The notes under the pieces: model-generated | Databases searched by the model: none | What the model was told of the DNA's origin: nothing | The model's input: the letters and a program-made list of their open reading frames with translations, nothing else | From: Candidatus Cloacimonadales bacterium | GTDB lineage: Bacteria > Cloacimonadota > Cloacimonadia > Cloacimonadales > JAIOQZ01 | Direction: 5' to 3' | Assembly (NCBI GenBank): GCA_963665815.1 | Contig: OY762463.1 | Location: 1,888,001-1,952,000 of the forward strand | Length of the DNA: 64,000 nucleotides | Shown here: one piece after another, positions 2,919-64,000 of the stretch | How positions within the stretch are numbered: position 1 is the first letter of the stretch | How the letters are laid out: every line of letters begins with the position of its first letter | Made by a program: the position numbers and the translations under genes

Positions 2919-2919
2919 A

Positions 2920-3546
2920 TTATCTCCTTTTATTAAAAGCACGATTTGGCATGTCTGTAATATTATAAGCTTTCCATAAAGATGACGGCATACGCTTCCA
3001 GGTCAGAAGCATTTTTTGCTGTCTTTCAGCATCAGAGACATGCATGTGCAATGTTGCAATTACGGCCGCAATAGCGTTCATGGAAGTCTGAGGCATATCG
3101 GTTGAAATTGTTCCGATATCAGTCTTAACGGAAACCGATGTAGCTTTCTGTGCTTTTGCTTCCTTTTTCTTTTCCTTCCATTTCTCGTAATTTGCCAGAT
3201 GCTCAAGCTGGGCAATAATGATTCCGATAATAAGCAAACTTGAAAAAACAACAAGCATTCCAATCAAAGTAATTGTTCCATACATTGATTTCTCAATTTT
3301 GTTGAATTCATCAATAGCTTTTTCGACATCAGCTTTTCCGAGATTAAGAGCACTCAGTTTAGTGCTGATGTTTACAGAATCAGAGACATTCATATAAGAA
3401 ATTAGTTTCTTGTATGGGATCCCGGTTTTCTGAGCAGTTTCCATCAGAGACATATCTGAAGTAATATTCAAATCTTCCGGATTCTCAGCCTGAATCATGG
3501 AAAAAAGGATCAGGAATAATATGCTTAAAACAAGTGTTTTTTTCAT
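2920..3546 (-). CDS. Decarboxylase delta subunit (OadG/MmdD-like) with N-terminal extension
   Basis: TM segment ITLIGMLVVFSSLLIIGIII, then IAAVIATL and a C-terminal SLWK motif; lies between the alpha and biotin-carrier genes. Confidence 0.72.
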   Translation of the reverse strand: MKKTLVLSILFLILFSMIQAENPEDLNITSDMSLMETAQKTGIPYKKLISYMNVSDSVNISTKLSALNLGKADVEKAIDEFNKIEKSMYGTITLIGMLVVFSSLLIIGIIIAQLEHLANYEKWKEKKKEAKAQKATSVSVKTDIGTISTDMPQTSMNAIAAVIATLHMHVSDAERQQKMLLTWKRMPSSLWKAYNITDMPNRAFNKRR

Positions 3547-3555
3547 ACTAAATCC

Positions 3556-5106: not shown

Positions 5107-5127
5107 TTATCCTCCGGAAATAAGAAA

Positions 5128-5532
5128 TTAATGATCTTTTTCCTTACAGAGTTCTACGAGAACACCATAAGATGATTTTGGATGCAGGAATGCAATATCA
5201 GCACCATGTGCACCCGGTCGAGGTTCTTTGTCTATTAATCGTATATTGTTTTCTTCAGATAACTTAAGTGCTTCAGGAAGATTGTCAACTGCAAAAGCAA
5301 GATGCTGAATTCCTTCACCTTTCTTTTCAATATATTTTGCAATTGGTCCGTCAGGAGCTGTTGATTCAAGAAGCTCTATACGAGTATCTCCAACAGGAAT
5401 AAAAGCAACTTTTACTTTCTGAGATTCAACAACTTCAGTAGATTCAACCTCAAGTCCAAGTTTTTTATAAAACTCAATTGCATCATCAAGATTTTTTACT
5501 GCAATTCCTATATGACTTATGTATTTTACCAT
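5128..5532 (-). CDS. mce: Methylmalonyl-CoA epimerase
   Basis: VOC-fold motifs HIGIAV, IELLE, GEGIQHLAF, GAHG, FLHPKS, LVELCE-like; start adjusted to ATG at 5532. Confidence 0.93.
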   Translation of the reverse strand: MVKYISHIGIAVKNLDDAIEFYKKLGLEVESTEVVESQKVKVAFIPVGDTRIELLESTAPDGPIAKYIEKKGEGIQHLAFAVDNLPEALKLSEENNIRLIDKEPRPGAHGADIAFLHPKSSYGVLVELCKEKDH

Positions 5533-5542
5533 AACTATCTCA

Positions 5543-6088
5543 CTATTGTTCTTCTTTAGCCAGTTTGAATCCAAGTTTCATTGCTTTGATATTGAGATCA
5601 ACAAAAGCAGGTTTTACCGTATTGCGAATTGCCTGTTCGAGACTCTTAACAGTAACAACTTTGGTTAACTGAACAAGGAAAGATAAAGTAAGAATATTAG
5701 TAGGTAAAGCACTTCCGAGTTCTTCCATAGCAATTTCAGTGAAGTTCCTTTCGTATACAGATGAATCTATCATTGAAATATTTTTTACGTATGTAGAATC
5801 AGCAATCAGGATACCATCTTCTCTAAGGTCAAAGATGTATTTATCACAAGCTTCCTGAGTAAGTGCAAGAAGAACATTAAATTGAGTCGCTTCAGGATAA
5901 TAAATCGCATCATTACTGATAAGCACGTCAGCTCTACTTGCTCCACCTCTGGATTCAGGTCCGTAACTTTGAGTCTGAGTAACATTCTTTTTATCAAGAA
6001 CAGCTGCGTTAGCAAGAATAATACCTGCAAGAATCAGACCTTGTCCACCGCTTCCACTTAATCTGGTTTCAGTTCTGGTACTTTTCAT
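5543..6088 (-). CDS. 2-oxoacid:ferredoxin oxidoreductase gamma subunit
   Basis: SGSGGQG and QSYGPESRGG motifs. Confidence 0.93.
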   Translation of the reverse strand: MKSTRTETRLSGSGGQGLILAGIILANAAVLDKKNVTQTQSYGPESRGGASRADVLISNDAIYYPEATQFNVLLALTQEACDKYIFDLREDGILIADSTYVKNISMIDSSVYERNFTEIAMEELGSALPTNILTLSFLVQLTKVVTVKSLEQAIRNTVKPAFVDLNIKAMKLGFKLAKEEQ

Positions 6089-6927
6089 TTTGACTCCTTA
6101 CCTTTTTTTAAGCTATCTACTAATCCTTTGTAAGCTTGAGTATACTCACGTTTTTCTTCCTGACGGAAGATACCGCGGATAATCTTTCCTTCTTTCTCTT
6201 CAGGTTTAAGTTTTTCAGCAGCAGCGATAGTGATAGAGTTTTCTTTCATCTGCATCATCATTTCCGGAGCTGCACCTTTTTTATTAAGTCTTCCGTAAAT
6301 AACAGGACAAGCACAGATAACTTCTACAACTGAAAGTCCTTTATGCTGAATAGCTTTTTTTATCATGTTTTCTGCTTCAACCGCATGATATGCTGTAGTT
6401 CTACCCACAAATGTAGCTCCTGCACCCATGGCAAGTTCACAGATATCAAATACAGGATCAATATTACCATAAGGCATTGTTGTTGCGCGATGTCCTGTAG
6501 GAGTTGTAGGTGAATATTGTCCACCTGTCATTCCGTAGATATTGTTATTAAGAACAATTATGTTTATATCAATATTTCTTCTTGCTGCGTGGATAAAGTG
6601 ATTACCACCAATTGCTGTTGCATCACCATCACCGGTAACAACAAAAACATTCATATCAGGTTTGTACATTTTAAGACCGGTAGCAAATGGAATTGCTCTT
6701 CCATGAAGAGTATGCAGTGTATTGAAGTCTGCATAAACAGGCATTCTGCTGGAACAACCGATACCTGATACCATTGCGATATCATCTTTTTTGATTTCAA
6801 GAGAATGGATAGCTCTGATGATATCACCAAGAACAATACCATTACTGCAACCCTGACACCAAACGTGTGGGAATTTCTTGTTATGTCTTAAATATTTATG
6901 TATTGTTTTTAATGCTATAGTTGCCAT
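6085..6927 (-). CDS. korB: 2-oxoacid:ferredoxin oxidoreductase beta subunit (TPP-binding, KorB-like)
   Basis: WCQGCS, SGIGCSSR, GDGDATAIGGNH, NNNIYGMTGGQYSPT motifs. Confidence 0.88.
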   Translation of the reverse strand: MATIALKTIHKYLRHNKKFPHVWCQGCSNGIVLGDIIRAIHSLEIKKDDIAMVSGIGCSSRMPVYADFNTLHTLHGRAIPFATGLKMYKPDMNVFVVTGDGDATAIGGNHFIHAARRNIDINIIVLNNNIYGMTGGQYSPTTPTGHRATTMPYGNIDPVFDICELAMGAGATFVGRTTAYHAVEAENMIKKAIQHKGLSVVEVICACPVIYGRLNKKGAAPEMMMQMKENSITIAAAEKLKPEEKEGKIIRGIFRQEEKREYTQAYKGLVDSLKKGKESK

Positions 6928-8088
6928 CTATTGTTCCTCCTTGATCTTCTTCAGGATTTCTCTCGGAGTAATCAGTTCTCCATCAACTCTCTGAATTGGT
7001 ATGATCTTTCCGTCTTCCTTATCTTTTGCAAGTCTCTCAATTTCATGAATAAACTGACCCTGATTCAACTCAGGAACAATTACTGATTCAACATTCTTGA
7101 GCATTTTCTTAACTGCATCATCCGGGAATGGCCATATTGTCAATGGTCTGAGAAGTCCCACTTTCAAGCCTTCACTTCTTGCCATCATTACTGCAGCTTT
7201 TGCTGAACGTGCTGTAATACCTGCAGCAAATACAGCAATTTTCGCATCATCCATTTTGAAGCTTTCGATTTGAACAAGGTCTCTGATGTTTGTTGTGATT
7301 TTCTTTTTGAGACGTTTCATCATCACATCAACTTCATTAGCCTTGTTCGTTGGAAAACCGTATTGATCGTGAGCAAGTCCGGTTACGTGGAATCTGTAAC
7401 CTTCGCCAAAACTTGCAACAGGAGAAAGATATTTCTGAGTTTCTTCGTAATGTTTATACCATTCAGGTGGAACAGTAGGTTTAATTCTGTTGATGATTCT
7501 GATTTTTGATACATCTGGAACCTCAACAGCTTCTCTCATGTGTCCAAGTACTTCGTCAAGAAGAAGAACAACACATGTTCTGTATTTTTCAGCAAGGTTT
7601 ACCGCACGAATTGTTAATTCATAACTTTCTTTTACTGAGTCCGGATAAAGGACTATTGCCGGAGCATCACCGTGAGAACCCCAACGAGCCTGCATAATGT
7701 CACCTTGAGACGGTTTTGTAGGTAAACCTGTAGATGGACCACCTCTCTGAACATTAACTATAAGTGATGGAGTTTCAGTAATTTTTGCAAAACCAATTGC
7801 TTCCTGCATAAGAGAAAAACCAGGTCCACTGGTTGCAGTCATTGATTTTGCTCCTGCAAGTGATGCACCTATTACAGCTGCGATACTTGCAATTTCGTCT
7901 TCCATTTGAATAAATGTTTTTCCTGCAGCAGGCAGTTTCTGAGAGAGAATCTCAGCAACTTCAGTTGAAGGGGTAATTGGATAGCCTGCAAAAAAATCTA
8001 CACCGGCATCCATTGCTGCTAATGCTATTGCTTCATTACCTTGCATCAGCTTTATGGTTTTCTTTTCTTGTTCATTCTTTTTTGGCAT
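6928..8088 (-). CDS. korA: 2-oxoacid:ferredoxin oxidoreductase alpha subunit (KorA-like)
   Basis: AGYPITPSTE, QMEDEIAS, TATSGPGFSLM, QRGGPSTGLPT motifs. Confidence 0.88.
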   Translation of the reverse strand: MPKKNEQEKKTIKLMQGNEAIALAAMDAGVDFFAGYPITPSTEVAEILSQKLPAAGKTFIQMEDEIASIAAVIGASLAGAKSMTATSGPGFSLMQEAIGFAKITETPSLIVNVQRGGPSTGLPTKPSQGDIMQARWGSHGDAPAIVLYPDSVKESYELTIRAVNLAEKYRTCVVLLLDEVLGHMREAVEVPDVSKIRIINRIKPTVPPEWYKHYEETQKYLSPVASFGEGYRFHVTGLAHDQYGFPTNKANEVDVMMKRLKKKITTNIRDLVQIESFKMDDAKIAVFAAGITARSAKAAVMMARSEGLKVGLLRPLTIWPFPDDAVKKMLKNVESVIVPELNQGQFIHEIERLAKDKEDGKIIPIQRVDGELITPREILKKIKEEQ

Positions 8089-8097
8089 ATCAACTCC

Positions 8098-8397
8098 TTA
8101 TCTTTTAGCACCTGTTATTGCGAAATCAGGGCACAATCTGTCACATGTACCACAGTGGATACATTTTTCCGGATTTTTAACGTATGGAGCGCCATCTGCT
8201 TTTCTGGCAAGCACTTTTGTCGGACAAAATGTTGCACAGATTCCGCATTTTTTACACCACTCATAATAAATAAACACCGGAGATTCTTTATAATCACCGG
8301 ACGTATTAATCTCAGTATCTTCAACTTCCATTTTTGCTGGATCACTATCGTCAAGAATGATCGACCCTTCTCGGTGTTTCTCAATCTTTTCAAACAT
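8098..8397 (-). CDS. 2x[4Fe-4S] ferredoxin, oxidoreductase delta subunit
   Basis: CKKCGICATFCP and CIHCGTCDRLCPDFAI; first gene of the operon. Confidence 0.9.
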   Translation of the reverse strand: MFEKIEKHREGSIILDDSDPAKMEVEDTEINTSGDYKESPVFIYYEWCKKCGICATFCPTKVLARKADGAPYVKNPEKCIHCGTCDRLCPDFAITGAKR

Positions 8398-8523
8398 TTT
8401 TTACTCCTTGAGTTATGAATTGTGCCAAAGACTAAAAAGTGCCCTTTTTCTTACAAGTTTTTTTAAGAAAAATAATACACCTTAAATTCTTTTGAACAAT
8501 TTCTATATTATTTTAACTTTAAA

Positions 8524-10059
8524 TTACTTAATTAATACAGCTTTGGAACTGAGAGAATAATTACCAGTTTTCAAAACCATAAGATATACTCCACTTGAGA
8601 CATTAATCCCATTTTCATTAATTCCATTCCACTTAAGAATATTAGTTCCTTTCCGGAATGTTCCTTCTTTGATTGTCCTTATTTTCTGGCCTTTAACATT
8701 ATAAACACAGAATTCACCTTCTGCGGCTTCAGTCAGGTCAAATTTTATTGTTGTCTCCGGATTAAACGGATTCGGATAAATATCCATTGAATTGTCATAT
8801 TGTACAACATCCTCAGATATTCCCACTGTTAAACTCAGCAGATCATCTCTGTTAAGTTCTGTAGATGGTGACTGATATGCCGGTGCAACACCTGCTACAG
8901 CCCATCGAATATACCCCGAAGAAGGTACATACTGAATAACATGAAGATTATGCATTACACCACAGGCATGATACATTAATGACAGACTTTTCTGTAGTGT
9001 TACATTTGTTGTATCTTCTATTGAACTTGAAAGAGCTGAATATCTGGAGCATGCTGAAGGAGATATCAATTCTCTGAAATGGTTTGTTGCAGCAAGATTA
9101 TCACCTGCAATAGCCGTATTGTCTGTCACATTTCTGCTGGTTAACCCAAGATTATCATTTATTTCAAATACTGTTGCAAACTCATACTCAGCCATATGTG
9201 TTACAGACTGCACAATAGCACCAAAAGCACAATTATCATCGGTCAGTGCTTGTCTTACATCATCAATGTTTGATACATTATCATCATTACAGTCTCTGCT
9301 TTCTACAGCTTTTCTGAGAGTTAATAATATTGGACTATATGTGTGTCCGGGAACTCTCGTATTATCATTTCCCATATTCTGGAAAACTGCCACGCCACTC
9401 TCATTTATTGCAGAAAGCGCTCCAAACATACCCGGGAATCCAAAGGAAAACCATGGTTGCTCATCGACTTCAGATGGTTCATGCACAATAATCATTGAGT
9501 TTGAACTGAGATGAGAGCTTACTGACCAGTCAAGATATCTTGTAATAACCAGTTCACCATTTAAATTATCATTTTGAGTAGCATTACCCCAGCTTGTCAG
9601 ACTTGAACATCCACCTGTATGTTCCGGATCACAATATCTATTGAAAGTCGTAGAAAGATCCGGTATTGTGTTGCATATAAGAACATCTATATAATCAATA
9701 TCCCTGTTTAAATAAGTAGAATGAACTGATGCTCCTGCGTCCTGAATACCTGTAACAATTGCCATTGCCTCTGTAACATATAAAGAATCACATACGAAAT
9801 TTGCTTCAAAATATGATCTCATTCCATTGTAATATTGAGATTGCCCCATAAGCATAGTTCCTATGACATAGTTATCGAATACCTGAAGAAATTTTTCGGC
9901 AACAAGATAACCGTGAGCATAACCTCTTTCCTGATGCGTTCCCCATAATTTCATTACGGTTTTACCATTAACATCAGTTATAAAACCATTGACTTGTCCA
10001 AAAATTGATATAACAATTGTTAATAAGAGAATTAGCATTATTTTCTTTTTCATACTCAT
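8524..10059 (-). CDS. Secreted peptidase C45/NAAA-like Ntn hydrolase with FlgD-Ig/T9SS-like C-terminal domain
   Basis: Signal peptide; GTHQERGYAHG, GCSS (candidate nucleophile Cys), RYLDW, INESG, ATNHF; C-terminal YPNPFNP...WNG...SSGVY. Confidence 0.75.
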   Translation of the reverse strand: MSMKKKIMLILLLTIVISIFGQVNGFITDVNGKTVMKLWGTHQERGYAHGYLVAEKFLQVFDNYVIGTMLMGQSQYYNGMRSYFEANFVCDSLYVTEAMAIVTGIQDAGASVHSTYLNRDIDYIDVLICNTIPDLSTTFNRYCDPEHTGGCSSLTSWGNATQNDNLNGELVITRYLDWSVSSHLSSNSMIIVHEPSEVDEQPWFSFGFPGMFGALSAINESGVAVFQNMGNDNTRVPGHTYSPILLTLRKAVESRDCNDDNVSNIDDVRQALTDDNCAFGAIVQSVTHMAEYEFATVFEINDNLGLTSRNVTDNTAIAGDNLAATNHFRELISPSACSRYSALSSSIEDTTNVTLQKSLSLMYHACGVMHNLHVIQYVPSSGYIRWAVAGVAPAYQSPSTELNRDDLLSLTVGISEDVVQYDNSMDIYPNPFNPETTIKFDLTEAAEGEFCVYNVKGQKIRTIKEGTFRKGTNILKWNGINENGINVSSGVYLMVLKTGNYSLSSKAVLIK

Positions 10060-10447
10060 TCCTGTTTTAAATTTTATCTGCTATATTTGATTATACATTT
10101 TCTGTCAAGGTTTTGAGTCCGATTATTTAAATAAATAATTTCTTCAGCCATTTTGTAATGCAAAAGATCTTTACATAGTTACAACAGCTTTTCTTGATTT
10201 CTCTCGAAAATAAGTGTTGAGTTCTTATCTCATTCAAGTATAATGCTTTCATCTTCTCTGACATCCGGGATATGTTAAAAGATTTCGATAGTATGCAAAG
10301 CTGTCATCCATTATAGTAAAAAATTGGAATCCCCCGTTTTTTCTTGAAAATCTGACTTCAAGAAAATTGGAAGGATTTTTAGCAGACATTTCTTAGAAAA
10401 ATGCATTCTTCATTTTCTTTGGGTTTCGGGGGGATGCATGCTATTGT

Positions 10448-10477
10448 AAAAAAGCCTGCCGGATTAATCAGCAGGCT
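10448..10477 (-). terminator. Rho-independent terminator
   Basis: AGCCTGC...GCAGGCT stem with flanking A-run, downstream of the stop at 10523. Confidence 0.7.
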
Positions 10478-10522
10478 ATAGAAAACGCAATTTTGTATGA
10501 ATTAATTTGATTTAGTTTGTTA

Positions 10523-12820
10523 TTATTTCAGCAATACTGCTTTAGTAATGTCTGTTGCTTCGTTTGTTTTAACTTTAATGAAGTAAACACCGGATGCAGA
10601 GTCTGTATTACTATCTGTTTTTCCATCCCATTTCAATGCTTGCTTACCTGCACCAAATTTCCTGTCAGCTAATTGTCGAACCTTCTGTCCTTTTATGTTG
10701 TATACTGCAACATCAACATTCGATTCCTTCTTCAAATTGAACTGAATATTTGTTTCAGGATTAAAGGGATTTGGATAATTATTTAATTGAAGTCCATTAT
10801 AATCAGATGCAAGTTCTTGATCTTTTATACCTAACCTGTCAAGATCAACATCAATCACTCCATAGTAGACAGCTCCACCCTCATCGTCAACAGTATCATC
10901 TTCATTTTCCTGTACACTTGATCCATATTTGTTATCAGCATAGAATGAAACATGTAATCTGGCAACTTCAGGTGATGGTTTTTCTATTGTATTTCCCATA
11001 GTCCAGTAGACTAGGCTTTCATTAGGAAATTGAGTCCTTAGCTGTTGATCATAGAAGAAGTTCACAGTATCCGGAGGACCTGTCTGATTTTGGTAAATCT
11101 CTGTATCATATACATTGTAAAGTTCTATCGGATCCGACCAGTGATTCCCATTATCTACTGATAATACAATATGACAACCTGGACGTTCAAACATTGGATG
11201 AGTATTCAAACCAGCATCGTGTGTCCTGAAGTTCATAGCACCTTCACCATACATTGCTGCAAGCCATCTTCCGTCCTGTGATCGAGCATATCTGAAATAA
11301 TTTTCATGGAAATCCTGATCAAGGTCATGATGCCAGAGTGGTAGAAAATACTGATTCCAGGTCCAGTGCCTTAATGTATCAAGTGCACCGTCATTATCTA
11401 CATCCCAAGGTGCTCTCGGAAATACATCATCACTTAAATATGAACCATCAGGAGCTTTATTCTCAGGATGTACCGGATTAAATGTTATCATCTCCTCTTC
11501 ACTTGCCGCATCAGGATCAAACACAAATTCAATAACTTTTGTATTCATGTAAAAAGAGGTTATCATAGTGTCTGTTCCGGTATAGTTATAATACTTTGGA
11601 GTCAGTGTACTCATAACATGAAAACGACCATAATTGTCCTGAGTTGCATTCATATGAGAGCCAAAATAAATACTCCAGAAAAGACTGTCTCCAGCTGAAA
11701 TATTACCCGTTGTTGGGAAATATGAGTAAAGAGTATCTGTTTGCGGATCTCTGAACTGAGGATTTTCGAATTCGAAACTTATTCCCTGGTCGTGAGATAC
11801 AAACTCTCCCTCGCCGTAATTATTGTTATAGTATGATCTTATCGTAGGAGTCATCAATCCGAATCGATCAACTACTCCCGTTTTGTAGTAATATCCGAAC
11901 AACACTATTTCCTGACCATTTTCAGATACGCATATTCCTTTCTGAAACCTACCCCATTCATCATTGACATACATGTTCCAGTCATTCAATTCCTGAAATG
12001 TCTTGTATGTCCATCCGTTATCATCAATCTGACCTGTATTATCATTCAGATCTGCATAGGCAAATAGAATATTTTCGGAAGCTGATGCTGTAGTATCAGT
12101 GCCTGTTATCGGATTATGCGATTTATTGTTACTGGCAAACAGAAATATTCTCGAAACATCGTTATCCATTCGTCTGATGAAAATATTTGGCCAAACATAC
12201 TGATCATCTACCTGAGTTCCATAGTTACCGCCGTAATCTGAATTATCAAACACACTGATAGATGTATAACTCAGATCTTCGAGCAGGGAATACTGATCCA
12301 TAACAAGTTTTATTTCAAACTCATTATCACCATCATAATCGCTATGAAATGCAATATAAGTTCTCTGAGTCACAGGATCAATTGCCAGACTTCCATAACC
12401 TTGTCTTTGGGTAGCCGATGCTACACCAGAATTAAAGTTGACAGTTCCGTCATATCCTACCATGTAACTTTTAACATATCTGTCAGTGTTTTGCTGGATC
12501 TGTAATGACATAACCATCTGATCTCCCAGAGTGACACCGGGATTAATCGCTGCAGGGAATGGATCCTGCTTAACAATTGGATTTGTATTATAGCTTGATG
12601 GGAAATAATCATATTTTGAAGTTGTGATCAAGCTGGGAGCAACATGCCAAAAATAAGTAATGTCCTTATCATCGTCTGATGCTCTCTCCTTCAATTTGAA
12701 ATTAGAATTTTTTGCAGGAACATACCTTTTAGAAACTGAATCATCTCTTTTCATGTAATCATCCGCCAAAATCACTACTGAAAAAGAGATAATAATTACA
12801 AATACAAGTAATTTTCTCAT
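10523..12820 (-). CDS. Secreted protein, probable Asp-box beta-propeller, with FlgD-Ig/T9SS-like CTD (paralog 2)
   Basis: Start adjusted to MRKLLV at 12820 (GGAGG upstream); signal peptide; Asp-box SVDNGNHW; CTD NYPNPFNP...WDGK...ASGVYF. Confidence 0.8.
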   Translation of the reverse strand: MRKLLVFVIIISFSVVILADDYMKRDDSVSKRYVPAKNSNFKLKERASDDDKDITYFWHVAPSLITTSKYDYFPSSYNTNPIVKQDPFPAAINPGVTLGDQMVMSLQIQQNTDRYVKSYMVGYDGTVNFNSGVASATQRQGYGSLAIDPVTQRTYIAFHSDYDGDNEFEIKLVMDQYSLLEDLSYTSISVFDNSDYGGNYGTQVDDQYVWPNIFIRRMDNDVSRIFLFASNNKSHNPITGTDTTASASENILFAYADLNDNTGQIDDNGWTYKTFQELNDWNMYVNDEWGRFQKGICVSENGQEIVLFGYYYKTGVVDRFGLMTPTIRSYYNNNYGEGEFVSHDQGISFEFENPQFRDPQTDTLYSYFPTTGNISAGDSLFWSIYFGSHMNATQDNYGRFHVMSTLTPKYYNYTGTDTMITSFYMNTKVIEFVFDPDAASEEEMITFNPVHPENKAPDGSYLSDDVFPRAPWDVDNDGALDTLRHWTWNQYFLPLWHHDLDQDFHENYFRYARSQDGRWLAAMYGEGAMNFRTHDAGLNTHPMFERPGCHIVLSVDNGNHWSDPIELYNVYDTEIYQNQTGPPDTVNFFYDQQLRTQFPNESLVYWTMGNTIEKPSPEVARLHVSFYADNKYGSSVQENEDDTVDDEGGAVYYGVIDVDLDRLGIKDQELASDYNGLQLNNYPNPFNPETNIQFNLKKESNVDVAVYNIKGQKVRQLADRKFGAGKQALKWDGKTDSNTDSASGVYFIKVKTNEATDITKAVLLK

Positions 12821-15462: not shown

Positions 15463-16521
15463 TTAATATTCCATTTTTATTGTTAAACGGTGAGCACTTT
15501 CAATGAATGACTCTTCAAGCCATCCCATTCTTGAATATGAATAATCAACACTGAATATACCTATTGATGACGGTATTTTTAATCCTAAACCATAGTTAGA
15601 AGGCATAACGGCTTCAAAACCATCGTATCTTTCTTCAAGGTCAGTATTAAATTGTTTACCGGTTCTTAAGTATAAAAGACTATATTTGTACTCAAATCCA
15701 AGGTTGAAGGATTCTCTTCTGTCAACACAGTTGTTGATCTGAAAAGCTCCCATAAGGTATGTAAGATCTTCTCTTGTCTGATACAGATCGATAGAAAGCC
15801 CGAATGAAAAATTCATTGGTATTTGAGATGTAAGATTGTCACCATCTTCATCAACTTCACCATCGCCATCATTATCAAGCAAATCGAACGGATCTTCACC
15901 ACTTCTGCCATCACCATCCTCATCAATATCAAACTCAACTTCACCACCGAAATTGCTCAAAGCCATACCAATAGTAAGGTTTCTCCAGTGTGTGTTATAC
16001 TGAGATCCAATATCAAATGCAATAGTATTTACTGCGTATTTATACAATTCTTCTCTGAGATATTTACCTGTAAATCCAAATGAGAACTTATCAGTAAATT
16101 GTCTACTGTATGTAAGACCAGTACTGAGAGCCATACATGTAAACTTTTCACCTGTGAATCCTTCTTCTTCTGTTGTGATTTCCATATCATCCATATGCAT
16201 CATATAAGCATGGAATGCAAATACTCCGAGATCATTGTAAAAGGATGCTGCAAAATAATCAAACATAATGTCTGCAACATAATCAGTATGAGAAAAGAAA
16301 AGCTGATTCTTCTCTTTTAAAGCAAGACCACCTGGATTCCAGTATGTAGATGAAATATCATCTGATACTGCAACATAGGCTTCTCCCATACCAATCGCGC
16401 GTGCATCTGTGGTAATTTTCAGAAACTGCATATCTGCAGTACCTGTTTTTGAGAAAACTTCTGCAAACATGTTTGAGGCAAAAAGAGAAATTACGAATAG
16501 TGTAATAAGTATTTTTTTCAT
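15463..16521 (-). CDS. PorV/PorQ-family outer-membrane beta-barrel
   Basis: QFLKITTDARAIGMGEAYVAVSDDISSTYWNPGGL N-terminal signature; alternating beta-strands; terminal aromatic residue. Confidence 0.85.
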   Translation of the reverse strand: MKKILITLFVISLFASNMFAEVFSKTGTADMQFLKITTDARAIGMGEAYVAVSDDISSTYWNPGGLALKEKNQLFFSHTDYVADIMFDYFAASFYNDLGVFAFHAYMMHMDDMEITTEEEGFTGEKFTCMALSTGLTYSRQFTDKFSFGFTGKYLREELYKYAVNTIAFDIGSQYNTHWRNLTIGMALSNFGGEVEFDIDEDGDGRSGEDPFDLLDNDGDGEVDEDGDNLTSQIPMNFSFGLSIDLYQTREDLTYLMGAFQINNCVDRRESFNLGFEYKYSLLYLRTGKQFNTDLEERYDGFEAVMPSNYGLGLKIPSSIGIFSVDYSYSRMGWLEESFIESAHRLTIKMEY

Positions 16522-32637: not shown

Positions 32638-33579
32638 TCAGAAATAATAGACAATACCTATCTGATTCCTTACACCCAGATCTCCCTGAGAAACAAAGGA
32701 ATAATCAAATCTGTATTTTTTCCAGTTAACACCAAATCCTGTTGAAAAACCACTGAGAACACCATCTCCGCCTGTCTCCCAGTCACTGGCTCTGCTGTCA
32801 TAACCTGCACGGAGCATTAATCGGTTTCTGTAATTTCCTTCAAGTCCGATATTAAGATATATGTCACTATTTTCCGGCTTATTAATATCTGCATTCAAAA
32901 GCAGAAACTCTCTTGCTTTAATAGATACTCCGGCAGTTATTGTTGTCGGTAGACCTTCATCATATTCAGATTCTGTAAAATATGTCAATTGTTTACCAAG
33001 ATTCTTTACGGCAATCCCTATTTTGATGTTTTCATTTGTTGTCTGATGAAGCAACCCTAAATCCAATGCAATTGCACTTGCAGATTTATCATCTATTGTT
33101 TCGTTTAAAAACTTACCGCTGAAACCAATTCTGATTGCATCACTAACTTTGAAACCCAGACCAAAACCAACAAGTATATCAGATGAACCAAATGTACCAT
33201 GAGTTCCCGTATAAACTCCATTTTCATCTTCAGTTGTTTTGTCAATATCTCCGATTGTGAGAAATTGAGAGAATATGGCAGCAGTAATCTTTTCTTTTAC
33301 AGGTCTGACATAAACAATAGTTCCACCATGATCACTCATCAGGTAATTACAATATGCAGTAGAAACAACTTCCTTTTCAATCTGAGAAATACCGGCAATA
33401 TTAAAAAAAACTGCATCGGCATCGTCTGCAGCACCGGTAAGAGCATTACCCATGGCAGATGAGCGTGTAGCAAAATTTATTTTATAAAAGTTAAAACCGT
33501 TAGTCCCTGCATCATCATGCACTGAAAACAGTGATGAAAAAAGCAATATCATTACAAATGTCAAAATGGCATTCTTCAT
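32638..33579 (-). CDS. PorV/PorQ-family outer-membrane protein (second copy)
   Basis: FYKINFATRSSAMGNA...AVFFNIAGI signature; DLG, LRAGY, FDYSF strands; terminal YYF. Confidence 0.8.
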   Translation of the reverse strand: MKNAILTFVMILLFSSLFSVHDDAGTNGFNFYKINFATRSSAMGNALTGAADDADAVFFNIAGISQIEKEVVSTAYCNYLMSDHGGTIVYVRPVKEKITAAIFSQFLTIGDIDKTTEDENGVYTGTHGTFGSSDILVGFGLGFKVSDAIRIGFSGKFLNETIDDKSASAIALDLGLLHQTTNENIKIGIAVKNLGKQLTYFTESEYDEGLPTTITAGVSIKAREFLLLNADINKPENSDIYLNIGLEGNYRNRLMLRAGYDSRASDWETGGDGVLSGFSTGFGVNWKKYRFDYSFVSQGDLGVRNQIGIVYYF

Positions 33580-57946: not shown

Positions 57947-58219
57947 CTATTCAGATGTCCCGAAGGTCTCAAGCTTTGAACCGTCTACATAAAGCATCTT
58001 AGGACGCAGCGGCATGCCTGTTTTCTTAATCTTGTCATTGTCGTTTTCTTCTACGTGTCTCCAGATCTCCCATTGATCACCTTCACCGTCAACACAGAAT
58101 GTGACAGTTTTCTTTACAAAGTCATCAATTATAAATTGAATAGATTCAAGTGGTTCCGCTTTTGTTACCGGAATACAGAAATTTTTCTTGTCATATAAAA
58201 ACTGATTATCTTTATCCAT
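57947..58219 (-). CDS. Hypothetical protein
   Basis: Likely ATG at 58219 after GGGAG; 90 aa, hydrophilic. Confidence 0.6.
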   Translation of the reverse strand: MDKDNQFLYDKKNFCIPVTKAEPLESIQFIIDDFVKKTVTFCVDGEGDQWEIWRHVEENDNDKIKKTGMPLRPKMLYVDGSKLETFGTSE

Positions 58220-58229
58220 CCAAACTCCC

Positions 58230-58826
58230 TTATTTTGTGGTAAATTGGTAAACATTAAACGAGCCGACATCATCGACCCAAATCTTTCTTTTGCCTTTTA
58301 CATCGAAATTAATTACTATTCTTGCATACTTAGCTTCTTTCTTAAAGAAACCTGTACTAAATTCTAATTTTGACCATTCAGTTTGTAAAGATGTTTTTTG
58401 ACTAATTTCATTTCTGATTTTTCCCTTATCATCAAAAGTAACAAAATAACAGGTAATTCCATCACCTATCCACTTGTCAGACTTCATGAATAATCGGTTA
58501 TAGTAAGCATATTGGAAATTTATGTCAAAAGCCTCGGAAATCAGGCTAACTTCGCTGTTATCAACAGTTATACAGGCAGATTTTTCTCCGCTGTAAGCAA
58601 CGTTATTATCCCAGGTGATCACTGCCTCCGGTTTAGTTTTATGTAGAATCATCCAACCAAGAGGGACTTCATCATATTTAAAATCCCCTCCTTCAAAATC
58701 AGCATTGAAGACAAGATTTTCCTTACCTTCTGCATCCTTTTCAGAAAATTCCAGTGTCGATCCAAAAAAACAACCTGTTAAAACAACAAATAGTAATACC
58801 GATATCCAAATAATTAATTTTCTCAT
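58230..58826 (-). CDS. Lipoprotein with carbohydrate-binding-module-like (CBM4/9-type) domain
   Basis: Lipobox LTGC; NLVFNADFE..P.GW...AYSGEKS...W...IWVDDV jelly-roll pattern. Confidence 0.65.
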   Translation of the reverse strand: MRKLIIWISVLLFVVLTGCFFGSTLEFSEKDAEGKENLVFNADFEGGDFKYDEVPLGWMILHKTKPEAVITWDNNVAYSGEKSACITVDNSEVSLISEAFDINFQYAYYNRLFMKSDKWIGDGITCYFVTFDDKGKIRNEISQKTSLQTEWSKLEFSTGFFKKEAKYARIVINFDVKGKRKIWVDDVGSFNVYQFTTK

Positions 58827-58834
58827 TAACGATC

Positions 58835-60049
58835 CTAAAGTAAAGATTTCCTTTCAAGATAAAACTTCAATATCATTGCCACAGCAATAGAGTTTATCAG
58901 CAAATTTGATCCTCCATAACTTATAAAAGGTAATGGAAGACCAGTAGTTGGAAACAAGCTGATATTCATTCCAATGTTTATTACAATCTGAAATGCAAGA
59001 TAGGCAAGTATTCCCGATGCAGCAATCTGAAACTCCCGCACTCTTAATCCCGGTATAATTCTCGCAATTCGTATCAATAAAACCGCATATAACAGTATTA
59101 ATACAAAAGATCCGACAAAACCGAATTCTTCCCCTATAACCGAGAATATAAAATCAGTATGCTTCTCAGGCAGGAAGTTCAGGCTTTTCTGAGTTCCGGC
59201 AAGAAATCCCTTTCCGAGAACACCTCCGGAACCTACAGCAATCTTTGCTTGAATTATCTGATAACCTGACCCAAGAGGATCTCGTGCAGGATTAAGAAAA
59301 GTCAATATCCGTTCCTGCTGATAACCCTTTAAACTATTCCAGGCTACCGGAACAATAAGATAAACAAATACATTAACAATAACAATGATCGAAGTAAGGA
59401 ATATTGAATACTTATTCCTTATATATATAATAATTAAAAAAACAATCCATATAATAAAAAAAGTCAAATTAAAAATCAATAAAATGCTCATTATGGGACT
59501 TACGAGCATGAGAATATACAAAACAGGGAACTCTGACACTACCAAAATTGTTATCATTGAGACCAGAAATACCAGAGAAGTTCCAAGATCCGGTTCCAGC
59601 AAAACCAGCAGGAATGGAAAGGCAAAAGCCCCTGCTGCTCTTGTAAATTTCTGAAAATTCGTCAGTTCTTTTTTTGCCAGCAGCTTAGCGCAGAACATAA
59701 TTGAAACCAGTTTTGCCAACTCTGACGGCTGAATTCTTAATCCCGGTAACCGTATCCACCTGTGAGCTCCATTGATTTCCCTGAAAAAGAAAACAGCAAT
59801 AAGCATTACAAGTACAGTAATATATCCGGGAACAATTGCAACTTCAATAATTCTCCATGGTACACGCAGAATAAGAAACAGCATTCCAGCACTGAGAGCA
59901 AGCCATACTATCTGCCTAATATAGAAATTCTGAACATGATACTCATCACCAATACGTGTAGAGGAGGCAGTGTATATAGCTATTACTCCGAACACAACCA
60001 GAACCAGCCAGACCGTAAGAATTATCCTGTCAATCTGCCGGTTCATCAC
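58835..60049 (-). CDS. rodA: Rod shape-determining protein RodA
   Basis: GAHRWI, QPSELAK, EPDLGT, GYQIIQAKIAVGSGG, PEKHTDFIF, LPFISYGGS. Confidence 0.95.
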   Translation of the reverse strand: MMNRQIDRIILTVWLVLVVFGVIAIYTASSTRIGDEYHVQNFYIRQIVWLALSAGMLFLILRVPWRIIEVAIVPGYITVLVMLIAVFFFREINGAHRWIRLPGLRIQPSELAKLVSIMFCAKLLAKKELTNFQKFTRAAGAFAFPFLLVLLEPDLGTSLVFLVSMITILVVSEFPVLYILMLVSPIMSILLIFNLTFFIIWIVFLIIIYIRNKYSIFLTSIIVIVNVFVYLIVPVAWNSLKGYQQERILTFLNPARDPLGSGYQIIQAKIAVGSGGVLGKGFLAGTQKSLNFLPEKHTDFIFSVIGEEFGFVGSFVLILLYAVLLIRIARIIPGLRVREFQIAASGILAYLAFQIVINIGMNISLFPTTGLPLPFISYGGSNLLINSIAVAMILKFYLERKSLL

Positions 60050-61815
60050 TCACCTGAAACCTTTTTATAATTATCATAAAATTTAACTATCTCACCCATA
60101 ATCGGAGCTGCAACATTACCACCATGACCGGCATTCTCAAGAAATACAGCCACAGCAATCTTTTCATCTTCCCATTCGGCATATCCGCCAAACCATGCAT
60201 GAGTCACATCATTAATATGATTCTCTGCTGATCCTGTTTTCCCGGATACTTTGACAACGGGGTGCCCTGCCAGATGTCCTGTCCCGCCCTTTCTGTTTAC
60301 AGTTTCATAAAGTGCTTTCTTAATCAGTGCCAGTGTCTCTCCGGTCATTGGCAGCTTTTTCTGATTGTATTTTATTCTGGAATTGACTTCTTCTGCACCC
60401 TTACCAATAGCTTTAGAAAAGATATGCGGTTGATTCCAAACTCCATCATTCCCCAGAGCAGCGTAATACGCACAAATCTGTAATGGAGTACAAAGAATCT
60501 CCCCCTGCCCAATTGCTATATTCACTGTGTGACCGATAATAGAAGCATGAGGTCCATATGTATCCTTATACCATTTTCTTGTCGGAAAAAATCCATTGCG
60601 TTCCTGAGGTAAATCAATACCTGTCTTCACAGTTATAAAATTCCTTTGAGTGAAGTCACCAATATCCTCTAATCTGAGTCTGGTTGACAAGTCATAAAAA
60701 AACACATCACAGGAATGTCTGATTGCCTCGGAAACATTCTGAAGTCCATGACCTGCCGAATTCCAGCATCTGAAGTACCGTCCACCGATCTCCATACCTC
60801 CGGTACAAGGTTCAAGTTCAGTATACTCATCAATTACATGAGTATCAAGTGCCAAAGAAGCAACAACAGGTTTATATACAGATCCAGGAGGATAAGTTGC
60901 GTGAATAGTCCGATCAAGCATTGGCTTGTCTTTGTTGTTTATCAGCTCAGACCAATCCTTCTGAGATATTCTTCCCATAAATATGTTAGGATCATACACT
61001 GGATTGTTCACATAAGCAATAACTTCTCCGGTTTCAGCATTCATCACTATCACCGAAGCATTATAGTCTTTTACAATTCCCTGAATGTAATTCTGTACAT
61101 AATTATCTATAGTCAATATAATCTGGTATCCATGCTCAACAGGTCTTGACAGGTTGTGTTTCAATAAGCCCAGCGATCTCCCCTTGGCATCTACCTGAAT
61201 AATGTTATATCCGGAAGTTCCTCTTAGTAGCTCTTCATATTGTTTTTCTATACCATTTTTGCCAATTACATCATTAATTGTATACTCTTTTTTATCAATG
61301 TTCTCATATTGTGTATCAGAGATTCTGCCAACATAACCGGTAAAATGAGAGCCATAAAGATAATTTCTCTTATATTCTGTTTTGAAAACAAGAGATGGAT
61401 AAAAGTTCATGTTTTCTGATACATAAATAAAATCTTCATATTCCATATTGACTACAAGAGGAATTTCCTGATATGACCTGAATCTGTTTTTATAAATGAT
61501 ATCGAGAACCTCATCCGTTGTCATATCGAATCTGCCTGAAATAAATTCTGACAGTTTCTTTTTATTCTTCAATTTCCCCGGCACAAAGTAAAGATTTTTA
61601 GATGATTCGTTTAATACTACAGGAGTATACTGCCTGTCAAAGATTTCACCACGAACAGGTGGGATACGTTTGATTCTGACAAAATTTTTCTCAGCAATAG
61701 TCTTGTAATAATCCCGATCAAAGAATTGCATACGAAACAGAACAATAAGAAGAGAAAGAAATACTATGCAAAGTACAAGAGTAGCACTGTTTGAAAATAG
61801 TTTAATATATTTCAT
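60046..61815 (-). CDS. mrdA: Penicillin-binding protein 2
   Basis: RGEIFDR, YPPGSVYK (SxxK), SCD, AIGQG, KTGSA motifs. Confidence 0.94.
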   Translation of the reverse strand: MKYIKLFSNSATLVLCIVFLSLLIVLFRMQFFDRDYYKTIAEKNFVRIKRIPPVRGEIFDRQYTPVVLNESSKNLYFVPGKLKNKKKLSEFISGRFDMTTDEVLDIIYKNRFRSYQEIPLVVNMEYEDFIYVSENMNFYPSLVFKTEYKRNYLYGSHFTGYVGRISDTQYENIDKKEYTINDVIGKNGIEKQYEELLRGTSGYNIIQVDAKGRSLGLLKHNLSRPVEHGYQIILTIDNYVQNYIQGIVKDYNASVIVMNAETGEVIAYVNNPVYDPNIFMGRISQKDWSELINNKDKPMLDRTIHATYPPGSVYKPVVASLALDTHVIDEYTELEPCTGGMEIGGRYFRCWNSAGHGLQNVSEAIRHSCDVFFYDLSTRLRLEDIGDFTQRNFITVKTGIDLPQERNGFFPTRKWYKDTYGPHASIIGHTVNIAIGQGEILCTPLQICAYYAALGNDGVWNQPHIFSKAIGKGAEEVNSRIKYNQKKLPMTGETLALIKKALYETVNRKGGTGHLAGHPVVKVSGKTGSAENHINDVTHAWFGGYAEWEDEKIAVAVFLENAGHGGNVAAPIMGEIVKFYDNYKKVSGE

Positions 61816-62290
61816 TAAAGGAAATCTTCATTCTTGATGAAAAATAAAGTACATAAATACCAATAAAGCTGACAAAGGTATTATATATAAAACTGAGAAA
61901 AGCCATAAGTGTAACTTCTCCATTTACCCAGAAAGCTTTGGATGTAATGTTATAGAATACGAAGAAGATAAAGTTAAGAAACAAAATACTGAGAAAAACC
62001 ACAATCATTCTGTTCTTACTGATTGAATTGTGCAATACATAAACCAGAAATGCAATAACAACAAATGCGAATGTTCCTACTCCGAATAACTGCGGATATA
62101 GAACATCAAATGCAAGTCCGGCAATAAATGAACTGCTCATATTAAGATAATAATTATCTGATAAATTCCAGAATATAATGAAACCGGTAATCAAATTGGG
62201 AATTACTCCGGCAATAATAAGCTCATCTGCCAGAAAAAACTGGAGAGAAATCGCAAAAATTAAACTTAATATTCTGGAAAAATATACCAA
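61802..62290 (-). CDS. mreD: Rod shape-determining protein MreD
   Basis: Highly hydrophobic 162 aa with GVIPNL and GLAFDV; directly upstream of pbp2. Confidence 0.85.
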   Translation of the reverse strand: MVYFSRILSLIFAISLQFFLADELIIAGVIPNLITGFIIFWNLSDNYYLNMSSSFIAGLAFDVLYPQLFGVGTFAFVVIAFLVYVLHNSISKNRMIVVFLSILFLNFIFFVFYNITSKAFWVNGEVTLMAFLSFIYNTFVSFIGIYVLYFSSRMKISFNEIY

Positions 62291-62298
62291 GGCTTACC

Positions 62299-62970
62299 TC
62301 ATGCTTTTCTTACAATACATAAAGGGGTTTGTTCATCACCCTGTCCCTGAGGATTGTCTTTCATTACTTTTTCCATGAAGTTCTTGTCTACACCATCACT
62401 ACCGCCTATCATCCAGCATCCCCCAATATCGTTGATATCCATAACTGCAGCTTCAATACCCAACTTCTCCTTGATCCCTTCACACACACCGGATGGATCT
62501 TTCGGACCTTTTATAACGCATTCATCATATGGAGGTATTGGGGATGTAGTTGCGGCATCAATCAATGCAGCCTGCATTCCGGCAACTCTGTAAAAATCAC
62601 CTTTTCTACCCACCAGTTTTCCCAGGGCTCCACATAATGCTGCAAACAGGATTCTCGGTGCACCTACTTCATCTACAGCACACTGCATACTTGTAGGAGC
62701 TCTCAAGCCTATTCCATAACTTACATTAGAAACAAATCTCCAGAGAAAATTAGCAACAAAACCTATTTTAATGTCTTTAACAGGAATTGCCCTTCCCTGG
62801 GTTATTGCAAGAGGACTTTCACTTATTGTTACTATATCTCCAGGTTTCATTTTATCTAATGCGTATTCACTTATGATTTCTACAATATCATCTCCCGGCT
62901 TAAATACATCTGTTTTTATAGGGATTCGAATATACTTTATTCCATAAACTTCAATTTCCGGATTCTTCAT
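62299..62970 (-). CDS. CofE-like (coenzyme F420-0:gamma-glutamyl ligase family) protein
   Basis: PGDDIV, GDIVTISESPLAITQGR, AAVMDIND and GQGDEQTPLCIVR match CofE-family motifs; likely ATG at 62970 after GGAG. Confidence 0.8.
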   Translation of the reverse strand: MKNPEIEVYGIKYIRIPIKTDVFKPGDDIVEIISEYALDKMKPGDIVTISESPLAITQGRAIPVKDIKIGFVANFLWRFVSNVSYGIGLRAPTSMQCAVDEVGAPRILFAALCGALGKLVGRKGDFYRVAGMQAALIDAATTSPIPPYDECVIKGPKDPSGVCEGIKEKLGIEAAVMDINDIGGCWMIGGSDGVDKNFMEKVMKDNPQGQGDEQTPLCIVRKA

Positions 62971-63748
62971 TGAATTCTCCATTATCAATTATTTCCAGTG
63001 TCTGGTGTTTTAAAATTACAACATGCTCAATGTTTTCTACTTTTACAAATGGTTTGATTATTGCGGATATATATAAGTTATCAGACGTGTTTTGTACTTT
63101 ATTGACTATGCCAACAGGATAGCCTTTGGGAAAAATTGATGATATATTTGATGTAATGACTGTATCAGCAACATTTATATTAGAACCAAGCTGGATCATA
63201 TTCATTTTCATTTCACCATATTCATTATTCTCAAGCAATCCCTGAACACGAGTATTCTTTGTTAACACTCCCGTCTTGAATTGAGTATTATCAAATGGCA
63301 GAACTATGCTTATTCTTCCTGAAACAGAGATTATCTTTCCGATGATACTTTTTTTGCCTATCACAGCATCATTTATTTCAACACCGTGCATGCTGCCTTT
63401 ATTAATAATCAGGTTTCTGGATTTGTACGTTCCTGACACTGCAACAACATCAGCATAGATTATTCCTTCGGAAGTATCAGACAGGTCTATATTCTGCTCC
63501 TGAAGCGAGCGCATACACTCTTCCAGAAAGTTAACTTTTTTCTGTAACTCAGCATTATATGTGTACAATTCTTCGTTCTCTCTGTGAAGCTGTTTCCTTG
63601 CTGCTTTATTCTCAAAAGCTTTGATCCAGAACGCAAAAACAGTTTTGGAAAAATAACCTGATTTTCGAATTCTGTCTTTTGAATTACCTGAAAACAGTAA
63701 AAAGGAAATTAACAGTAATATTCCAAAAAAAAATGATTTCTTAAGCAA
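62951..63748 (-). CDS. mreC: Rod shape-determining protein MreC
   Basis: N-terminal TM, coiled coil, IINKGSMHGV, VITS..SSIFPKGYPVGIV. Confidence 0.92.
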   Translation of the reverse strand: MLKKSFFFGILLLISFLLFSGNSKDRIRKSGYFSKTVFAFWIKAFENKAARKQLHRENEELYTYNAELQKKVNFLEECMRSLQEQNIDLSDTSEGIIYADVVAVSGTYKSRNLIINKGSMHGVEINDAVIGKKSIIGKIISVSGRISIVLPFDNTQFKTGVLTKNTRVQGLLENNEYGEMKMNMIQLGSNINVADTVITSNISSIFPKGYPVGIVNKVQNTSDNLYISAIIKPFVKVENIEHVVILKHQTLEIIDNGEFNEESGN

Positions 63749-63749
63749 T

Positions 63750-64000
63750 TTAATCTTCTATTTTCTTAATCAGAACTTCCCTGTATTTATCAACGTTATC
63801 CAATATCATTCCGGAGCCTTTTACAACACAGGTCAGTGATTCAGGATAAACATGAACAGGAAGATCTATTACATCCTGTATTCTTTTATCAAGTCCCTTA
63901 AGGTATGCTCCACCACCTGTAAGTACAATACCTCTGTCAGCAATGTCTGCTGCGAGCTCCGGAGCTGTTTTCTCAAATAAACGTTTTACAGCATCAATCA
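63750..64000 (-). CDS. mreB: Rod shape-determining protein MreB (3' end only)
   Basis: Hand translation: IDAVKRLFEKTAPELAADIADRGIVLTGGGAYL...; TAA at 63750-63752. Confidence 0.95.
   Translation of the reverse strand, partial: IDAVKRLFEKTAPELAADIADRGIVLTGGGAYLKGLDKRIQDVIDLPVHVYPESLTCVVKGSGMILDNVDKYREVLIKKIED

Follow-up and report, generated by a model that had tools for sequence, protein, structure and literature searches.

A 64,000-nucleotide stretch of the genome of a Candidatus Cloacimonadales bacterium (contig OY762463.1, positions 1,888,001 to 1,952,000; hereafter the window) carries, between the genes mreC and mreD of its Rod (elongation) operon, an uncharacterised gene for a protein with the fold of the F420 biosynthesis enzyme CofE. 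We refer to the gene and its product as X. We find that X is a distant homologue of CofE and that, in Cloacimonadota, it was inserted into the Rod operon long ago and is under strong constraint, although some lineages do without it. F420 roles and FolC2-type folate roles of X are disfavoured. Instead, we tentatively favour, with some reserve, a role in peptidoglycan-precursor metabolism: X would be a CofE-fold enzyme located in the cytoplasm near the membrane, and probably a nucleotide-dependent carboxylate-amine ligase. The fold and the superfamily are known; what is new is the biological setting, which can be tested.

The mreC-X-mreD locus and its conservation

X (62299..62970) encodes a 223-amino-acid (aa) protein that matches the Pfam family F420_ligase and belongs to a distinct subfamily of it. 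The gene lies on the minus strand, as do its neighbours, in the order mreB-mreC-X-mreD-pbp2-rodA. The 3' end of mreB (63750..63998), recognised from its open reading frame (ORF) and MreB matches, runs off the window and is followed by mreC (62951..63748; PF04085 113.5 bits, TIGR00219 93.9 bits against a cut-off of 92.75). Downstream of X are mreD (61802..62290; PF04093 42.2 bits, TIGR03426 47.2 bits), pbp2 (mrdA; 60046..61815; Transpeptidase 202.9 bits, PBP_dimer 127.9 bits), which overlaps the end of mreD, and rodA (mrdB; 58835..60049; FTSW_RODA_SPOVE 304 bits).

The TGA stop codon of mreC (62953-62951) lies within X, giving an overlap of 20 nucleotides (nt) with its start, and the stop codon of X (62301-62299) is separated by 8 nt from the TTG start codon of mreD at 62290; moreover, a GAGG sequence (62300-62297) preceding mreD overlaps the X stop codon. 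The longest ORF for X spans 62299-62988 on the minus strand and begins with TTG, the ATG at 62970 yields the 223-aa protein, and a database gene call takes an ATG four codons upstream, yielding 227 aa. Because a GGAG Shine-Dalgarno sequence (62977..62980, minus strand), located within the 3' end of mreC, precedes the ATG at 62970 with a 6-nt spacer, this ATG is the most plausible start. Thus, both the start codon chosen in an earlier reading of the sequence alone (the sequence-only reading) and the geometry that it described, i.e. the 20-nt overlap with mreC and the 8 nt to mreD within a Rod operon, agree with the ORFs and Pfam matches. On the minus strand, no terminator-like sites were seen between mreC, X and mreD, and promoter-like matches were not enriched (28 versus 26.3 in shuffled sequences). 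Among sequencing runs, three of DNA type from a single study were found and none of RNA.

X was detected in 167 of the 201 genomes sampled from the phylum; among the 151 of high quality, 124 have it. In a scan of the phylum, the order mreB-mreC-X-mreD was present in all 30 loci, which are the best matches and come from a single order, and pbp2 was next in all 29 loci that reach that far. In an independent scan of species genomes, 17 of the 80 loci kept for study had the mreC-X-mreD context: every one of the 15 loci that bear the label Cloacimonadota, and two for which the label says only "bacterium". Among the 15, two are divergent, with X 61% identical. Because the arrangement recurs in the 30 loci of the first scan and the 17 loci of the second, it is far beyond chance, and the position of X, which the sequence-only reading had met in this one genome, is found phylum-wide.

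Outside the genus of the window (28 loci), sequence identity is 68-74% for X, 31-43% for MreC, 23-40% for MreD, 43-52% for PBP2 and 71-88% for the MreB C terminus; the constraint on X is approximately that on the MreB C terminus. Counted from the starts of the longest ORFs, X and mreD are spaced by -25 to +20 nt in 30 of the 36 loci compared, and in nine of the 36 they overlap by 4 nt. Finally, five genomes that lack X, four of which are from the window's own family, have the order mreB-mreC-mreD-pbp2 with mreC and mreD abutting or overlapping, and no X was found elsewhere in these five genomes. Because five Cloacimonadota genomes do without it, X is an accessory and not a core part of the elongation machinery.

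Directly after rodA, the window contains a 198-aa ORF (58230-58826, minus strand) with a lipoprotein-like N terminus, i.e. a hydrophobic stretch ending in Cys, which is followed by a 108-aa ORF (57947-58273, minus strand). Neither has a Pfam match, and both may belong to the same operon as rodA.

X as a distant homologue of CofE

CofE is the F420-0:gamma-glutamyl ligase, which ligates L-glutamate in a GTP- and Mn-dependent reaction. X passes the cut-off of PF01996 (F420_ligase) with 39.3 bits (cut-off 25), covering only profile positions 2-139 of 218; this is its sole Pfam match, and it has no Mur-ligase or Asn-synthase domain. With the NCBIfam CofE equivalogs TIGR01916 and NF009809, X stays well under the cut-offs (17.5 versus 180.65 bits and 18.7 versus 274 bits, respectively). 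An AlphaFold2 model of X, generated from a 66-sequence alignment (predicted local distance difference test score 94.8), retrieved CofE structures only in Foldseek (E 3e-9 to 4e-8, template modelling score ~0.6, probability 1.00). When the model was compared with 48,161 chains using VIA-align, CofE (2phn) had a Z score of 15.0 (root-mean-square deviation 3.1 A over 181 residues, 20% identity) and the next chain 4.9.

Similarly, a profile of the X family matched CofE chains among solved structures at E ~3e-6, and hhalign of the X family with seven actinobacterial CofE sequences gave a probability of 96.7% over X residues 21-180. An N-terminal G-D-x-hydrophobic...G-R region and one aspartate-containing strand can be aligned between X and CofE. 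A search of the ESM Atlas returned only the clusters of the X family itself. When X alone was compared with solved structures, cytidine deaminases were matched (E 0.26-0.49); we rejected these matches as chance, and the family profile is needed for this comparison. Because profile, profile-profile and fold comparisons all match CofE, we conclude that X is a true but distant CofE homologue; the designation "CofE-like" in the sequence-only reading is borne out by the PF01996 match and the fold.

X shares its fold and PF01996 membership with the N-terminal domain of CofE/FbiB (PDB 2PHN, 7ULD); by contrast, it is only ~20% identical to CofE, forms a separate clade, has the K..SK.E motif of CofE replaced, has a C-terminal motif of its own, and lacks the segment with CofE R234. 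The residues D45, D138, D178, N180, D181 and N206 of X are near-invariant across phyla. D45 and the D178-x-N180-D181 cluster align with invariant aspartates of CofE, with two alignments differing by two residues in register; these CofE aspartates are said to have been described as metal binders by Nocek and colleagues in 2007. The C-terminal motif D-N-P-x-G-Q-x-x-E-Q-T-P (N206, P207, G209, T215, P216) is invariant in the X family and its own, and the active-site motif H-K-x-x-S-K-A-E-G of CofE is invariant in all seven actinobacterial CofE sequences aligned. In CofE, F92, G153-C155 and R234 contact the F420 chromophore; R234 comes from the other subunit of the dimer and stacks on the F420 ring (PMC10861534). 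The structural alignment stops at CofE residue 221, which corresponds to the last residue of X; because X ends there, it lacks a segment matching R234.

In 61 Actinomycetota genomes, PF01996 matches fall into two classes, i.e. a CofE/FbiB type with 150-250 bits covering profile positions 4-218 and an X type with 25-39 bits covering positions 2-145, and one genome (G229) carries genes of both types. This tally includes three genomes flagged as unpublished (G205, G222, G252), on which no other claim here rests. Moreover, in a quick maximum-likelihood tree a long branch with a Shimodaira-Hasegawa-like approximate likelihood ratio test (SH-aLRT) support of 100 separates the seven CofE sequences from 66 sequences of the X family.

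The genome containing the window is a single contig of 3.96 Mb with a completeness of 98.66%, and X is its only PF01996 gene. The sequence-only reading had proposed screening this genome for F420, folate and Mur genes. In the screen, the CofD family (PF01933) had no match in this genome, and CofH did not exceed its cut-off in any of five X-bearing genomes (this one, Microbacterium, Oscillospiraceae, a 0.8-Mb Saccharibacteria genome and Sumerlaeota), with all matches in this genome below the cut-off. A canonical FolC is encoded (TIGR01499, 374.5 bits, above cut-off), as it is in five of five further genomes (four X-bearing genomes and one X-lacking relative), and folP is located elsewhere in the genome, away from X. 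The dcw cluster encodes FtsI, a MurE-MurF fusion, MraY, MurD, FtsW, MurG, MurC and MurB and thus a complete Mur set; the proteins reach the NCBIfam cut-offs except FtsW (257.5 versus 337.5 bits) and FtsI, which have family-level matches only. No Mpl above cut-off was found in the genome. Mur_ligase_M domains are present in MurC, MurD, MurE/F, FolC and the poly-gamma-glutamate synthase subunit PgsB, and X has none. Because FolC and the Mur set are present, CofD is absent and CofH is below cut-off, X fills no folate, F420 or Mur gap.

Chlamydial FolC2 (CT611) is a CofE-family protein of a bacterium without F420 production, where it serves a purpose other than F420 synthesis (PMC1971073, PMC4161248); this is the sole non-F420 role that we found in print for the CofE family. 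Like X, FolC2 is a CofE-family member in a non-F420 setting; however, FolC2 is encoded in a folate gene cluster of genomes lacking FolC, whereas X is encoded in the Rod operon of a genome with FolC; the comparison of the two rests on this genomic context.

Three further observations concern this genome and the phylum. First, MurE and MurF of this genome are fused into one 928-aa protein (locus L137, 7354-10140, minus strand), the MurE half of which scores 572 bits with the meso-diaminopimelate (meso-DAP)-type model NF001126 and 353 bits, against a cut-off of 536, with the L-lysine-type model. Second, the genome encodes PgsB (410 bits, cut-off 222.7) followed by CapC, a poly-gamma-glutamate synthase pair (G000:C1:3151440-3153070; locus L006, 1126-2755). 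Of the 201 phylum genomes, 183 have PgsB above cut-off, and poly-gamma-glutamate synthesis therefore looks phylum-wide; a correlation between PgsB and X was rejected because PgsB is also present in genomes lacking X. Third, six single-contig genomes of one family (f13: G002, G005, G008, G017, G022, G064), of 1.5-1.6 Mb and 97-99% complete, lack both X and PgsB; this family looks like a reduced lineage within the class.

Fusion partners and neighbours in other phyla

An exhaustive search for the X family gave 976 clusters at 50% identity (E<=0.001), and at least 587 loci with relatives of X were found in species genomes. The 80 loci kept for study are from Bacillota (34, mostly Oscillospiraceae), Cloacimonadota (15), Microbacterium (11), Sumerlaeota/BRC1 (six), unlabelled organisms (six), Saccharibacteria (three), Armatimonadota (two), and other Actinomycetota, Calditrichales and Gammaproteobacteria (one each). 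In Saccharibacteria, X is kept in genomes of 0.7-0.8 Mb, beside murJ.

Fusions were scanned in 91 of 150 listed representatives, comprising the longer ones and the best hits. X is fused to Asn_synthase and/or GATase domains in 10 of these, to Amidase_3 in six and to tetratricopeptide repeats (TPR) in 12, with single fusions to a MurF-type Mur ligase, a polysaccharide deacetylase, PlsY and a CDP-alcohol phosphatidyltransferase (PgsA-like), whereas ~55 of the 91 have PF01996 only or no Pfam hit. Among the fusion partners, NCBIfam names MurF (321.6 bits, cut-off 288.6), asparagine synthase (436 bits, cut-off 267), PlsY and a PepV/Sapep-like protein. The 42 long X homologues divide into 31 AsnB/GATase-X, three Amidase_3-X and three TPR-X forms and five with an unknown N terminus. 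In six of six further genomes, all from one actinobacterial class, AsnB-X is one open frame with all domains, and in the same class seven of nine X genes lie in frames of 897-1037 aa. One cluster of Amidase_3-X has 25 members, and its 539-aa full form comes from many contigs. Finally, many forms of 400 aa have an unknown N-terminal part that begins with a membrane helix followed by basic residues, which places X on the cytoplasmic face.

In the 63 kept loci without the Cloacimonadota context, no Mre genes were detectable near X with the proteins of the window. We scanned 44 of these loci with Pfam for up to three genes on each side of X, using crude ORF calls. In L071, an X-GNAT fusion and murJ overlap by 4 nt, four Clostridia-type loci (L076, L098, L077, L109) have murB-PHP-rapZ immediately downstream of X, a YkuD (L,D-transpeptidase) gene adjoins an AsnB-X fusion (L093), and an LCP gene is directly upstream of X (L099). 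Moreover, X has nearby a gene for a GH3/beta-lactamase-fold fusion (L111), GH25-SLH (L118) or a DD-carboxypeptidase (L086), alanine-racemase-family genes in Microbacterium (L104, L114, L117), and ATP-grasp genes (L049, L096, L114, L051). Altogether, the neighbours and fusion partners of X include enzymes that make, amidate, flip, cross-link or cleave N-acetylmuramic acid (MurNAc)-peptides. The wall-unrelated neighbours elsewhere include MiaB-like, PP-loop ATPase, ArgD/OTCase and sigma-70 genes.

In L076, the cluster (4944-10632) reads SBP-X-murB-PHP-rapZ-yvcK-signal peptidase-whiA, and its YvcK-type gene matches the CofD family with 382 bits. A CofE-like and a CofD-like gene thus share one cell-wall cluster in this locus; F420 genes were not searched for in the genomes of L076, L098, L077 and L109. 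In Microbacterium (L049, L096, L104, L114, L117, L051), X comes after a principal sigma-70-type gene and is beside 'sugar-transfer associated ATP-grasp' and alanine-racemase-family genes. Microbacterium has B-type peptidoglycan and, to our knowledge, the ligases that form its bridge have not been identified.

Apart from X, 40 ORFs of the window were scanned, and 22 of them were named using NCBIfam (E<=1e-25). The sequence-only reading had stated that the window contains no F420 or folate gene; this holds among the 22 named ORFs, and 18 ORFs stayed unnamed. Two genes of the PorV/PorQ family (type IX secretion system) are located at 15463-16521 and 32638-33579 (both minus strand; 180 and 145 bits, respectively) among several large unnamed ORFs of 766-1020 aa. 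A cluster for a sodium-pumping methylmalonyl-CoA decarboxylase (beta subunit, biotin carrier, alpha subunit and epimerase) is at 1069-5574 (minus strand), next to a 2-oxoacid:ferredoxin oxidoreductase at 5543-8088.

Candidate roles of X

We place the X family in peptidoglycan-precursor or envelope metabolism because of the coupled position in the Rod operon, the recurrent membrane tethering, and the recurrent juxtaposition or fusion with MurNAc-peptide enzymes. The family would be a large bacterial sister family of CofE without a role in F420 or folate tailing. In Cloacimonadota, X is probably translationally coupled to mreC and mreD and, because of this coupling, would be produced in step with the Rod machinery. 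Whereas the gene, its fold, its place in the operon, its conservation, distribution and fusions and the absence of the F420 genes tested are shown here, it is inferred that X is catalytic, uses a nucleotide, has a substrate of this class and acts at the membrane's inner face. In the likeliest mechanism, by homology with CofE, a nucleotide triphosphate and a divalent metal would activate a carboxylate of the substrate as an acyl-phosphate, to which an amine would then be ligated. Candidate carboxylates in MurNAc-peptide precursors are those of the D-lactyl group made by MurB, D-iso-Glu and meso-DAP. A prediction of an MreD-X complex gave no answer (score 0.00, mark 0.32) and is evidence neither way.

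Known modifiers and recyclers of stem-peptide carboxylates are MurT/GatD, the AsnB/LtsA amidotransferases and Mpl. X may work in a similar manner, using a nucleotide in the cytoplasm to activate a carboxylate of a MurNAc-peptide precursor; however, these enzymes have no homology with X, which is itself fused to AsnB-type amidotransferases in many lineages.

Several observations weigh against a precursor ligase. X was not found in 34 of the 201 genomes of the phylum (27 of the 151 high-quality ones), including sister genera with an otherwise identical Rod operon, and the Mur pathway of the host has no gap for X, with MurC, MurD, MurE/F, MraY, MurG and MurB all present. Moreover, the CofE active-site motif is replaced by S-E-S-P-L-A-I-T-Q-G in X (in general form S-E-S/K-x-x-A-I-T-Q-G), i.e. 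CofE K44 corresponds to S52 (K in most other family members), S47 to A55, K48 to I56 and E50 to Q58; the chemistry or the ligand may therefore differ. With this motif lost, and with the sequence-level alignment to CofE reaching no further than residue 180 of X, X cannot be taken for certain to have ligase chemistry. Single fusions to GNAT, M20 dipeptidase (PepV-like), HD_4 (RelA/SpoT HD) and adenylate kinase fit a ligand-binding module equally well, and the fusion to MurF, seen in one sequence from a contig of 2.9 kb, carries little weight. Finally, on either side of AsnB-X in the six further loci there are ABC-2 transporters or genes without a name and no wall genes, and the neighbours in other phyla are mostly unrelated to the wall: a clearly peptidoglycan-specific gene is present within three genes of X in 13 of the 44 loci scanned, and because several of these come from related genomes, the 13 amount to about eight independent contexts. 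Thus, the cell-wall link drawn by the sequence-only reading is strengthened by MurB, MurJ, YkuD and LCP neighbours and by Amidase_3 and AsnB-type fusions in other phyla, and it is weakened by the wall-unrelated genes that make up most neighbourhoods there. The amide-ligase activity on the stem peptide or lipid II that this reading put forward is a hypothesis.

The main rival to the ligase reading is that X is a ligand-sensing regulator, which binds a nucleotide or nucleotide-sugar such as GTP, (p)ppGpp, UDP-GlcNAc or UDP-MurNAc-peptide and tunes the enzyme or complex to which it is fused or with which it is encoded, i.e. the Rod complex in Cloacimonadota. The loss in X of the invariant S-K and E residues of CofE is in line with such a role, as are the dispensability of X in some lineages and the very diverse partners at either end of the protein (AsnB, Amidase_3, TPR, PlsY, PgsA-like, adenylate kinase, RelA/SpoT HD, dipeptidase and GNAT), which are typical of a regulatory module. 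YvcK/GlmR, a CofD-like protein of Firmicutes, binds UDP-GlcNAc and has a part in supplying cell-wall precursors; it thereby sets a precedent for recruiting an F420-pathway-like protein to envelope metabolism, and the clustering of X in L076 with a YvcK-like gene, murB, rapZ and whiA also fits a regulator. However, YvcK/GlmR has a different fold, belongs to a different family and is not needed alongside X: a dependence of X on YvcK was rejected because no CofD-family gene is present in the host genome or in two of five other X-bearing genomes (Saccharibacteria and Sumerlaeota). A regulator is also difficult to reconcile with the very high identity of X across families of the phylum and with near-invariant Asp and Asn residues that, at the positions of the invariant CofE aspartates, look like a metal-dependent active site. 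We regard a regulatory role as rather doubtful.

A housekeeping role in metabolism away from the wall is, in our judgement, unlikely; X would then be an enzyme of, for example, amino-acid amide or nucleotide metabolism that has merely become fixed in the Rod operon of one phylum. Such an enzyme would fit the wall-unrelated majority of neighbourhoods outside Cloacimonadota, the uninformative flanks of AsnB-X, and the dominant fusion, which is to an asparagine-synthase-type enzyme. It would not account for the strict placement between mreC and mreD with overlapping or near-abutting frames in two orders of the phylum (families f14/f15 represent the second), for the repeated independent juxtaposition with MurB, MurJ, YkuD, LCP and Amidase_3 in other phyla, or for the retention of X beside murJ in the very small Saccharibacteria genomes. 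Finally, a cofactor-tailing ligase like CofE for F420 or chlamydial FolC2 for folate, to which the F420_ligase membership, the CofE fold and the complementation of an Escherichia coli folC mutant by CT611 (PMC1971073) would point, is highly improbable given the equivalog scores far under cut-off, the absence of CofD from the host and of CofH above cut-off from all five X-bearing genomes, the presence of FolC in all five X-bearing genomes tested for it, the two separate score classes with one genome having both, the long branch to CofE, and the end of X near CofE residue 221, before R234 (PMC10861534).

Full-text searches found no paper on the X subfamily or on a gene between mreC and mreD. In a wider form of the ligase reading, which we consider speculative and unlikely as it stands, the X family would be an unrecognised and widespread peptidoglycan-precursor enzyme, a bacterial sister lineage of CofE that joins an amino acid, an amine or a peptide to one of the carboxylates of (UDP-)MurNAc or its stem peptide. 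The chemistry offers a close parallel. The F420 pathway reduces an enolpyruvyl group to a lactyl group, and CofE/FbiB then aminoacylates the carboxylate of the latter; for peptidoglycan, MurA and MurB make the lactyl group of UDP-MurNAc, and the lactyl-L-Ala amide bond is precisely the one cut by Amidase_3, to which X is recurrently fused. If X does ligate to MurNAc carboxylates then, with the CofD-like YvcK sharing the murB cluster in some Clostridia, the synthesis of the F420 tail and cell-wall precursor metabolism would share ancestry. The origin of CofE is termed unclear in a 2021 review (PMC8498797); the X family would bear on this origin and would add a new enzyme class to peptidoglycan biology.

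Thousands of X-type proteins carry the database name "coenzyme F420-0:L-glutamate ligase". Because neither of the two F420 genes searched for, CofD and CofH, passed its cut-off in the organisms tested, this annotation is almost certainly wrong for the X subfamily. Carriers of the family include gut Oscillospiraceae, Microbacterium, Sumerlaeota, Armatimonadota and Saccharibacteria, the last with tiny genomes. The fixation of X in the Rod operon across a phylum and its recurrent fusions to wall enzymes point to a step, or a point of control, that is missing from the picture of cell-wall growth and that is testable in culturable carriers of X.

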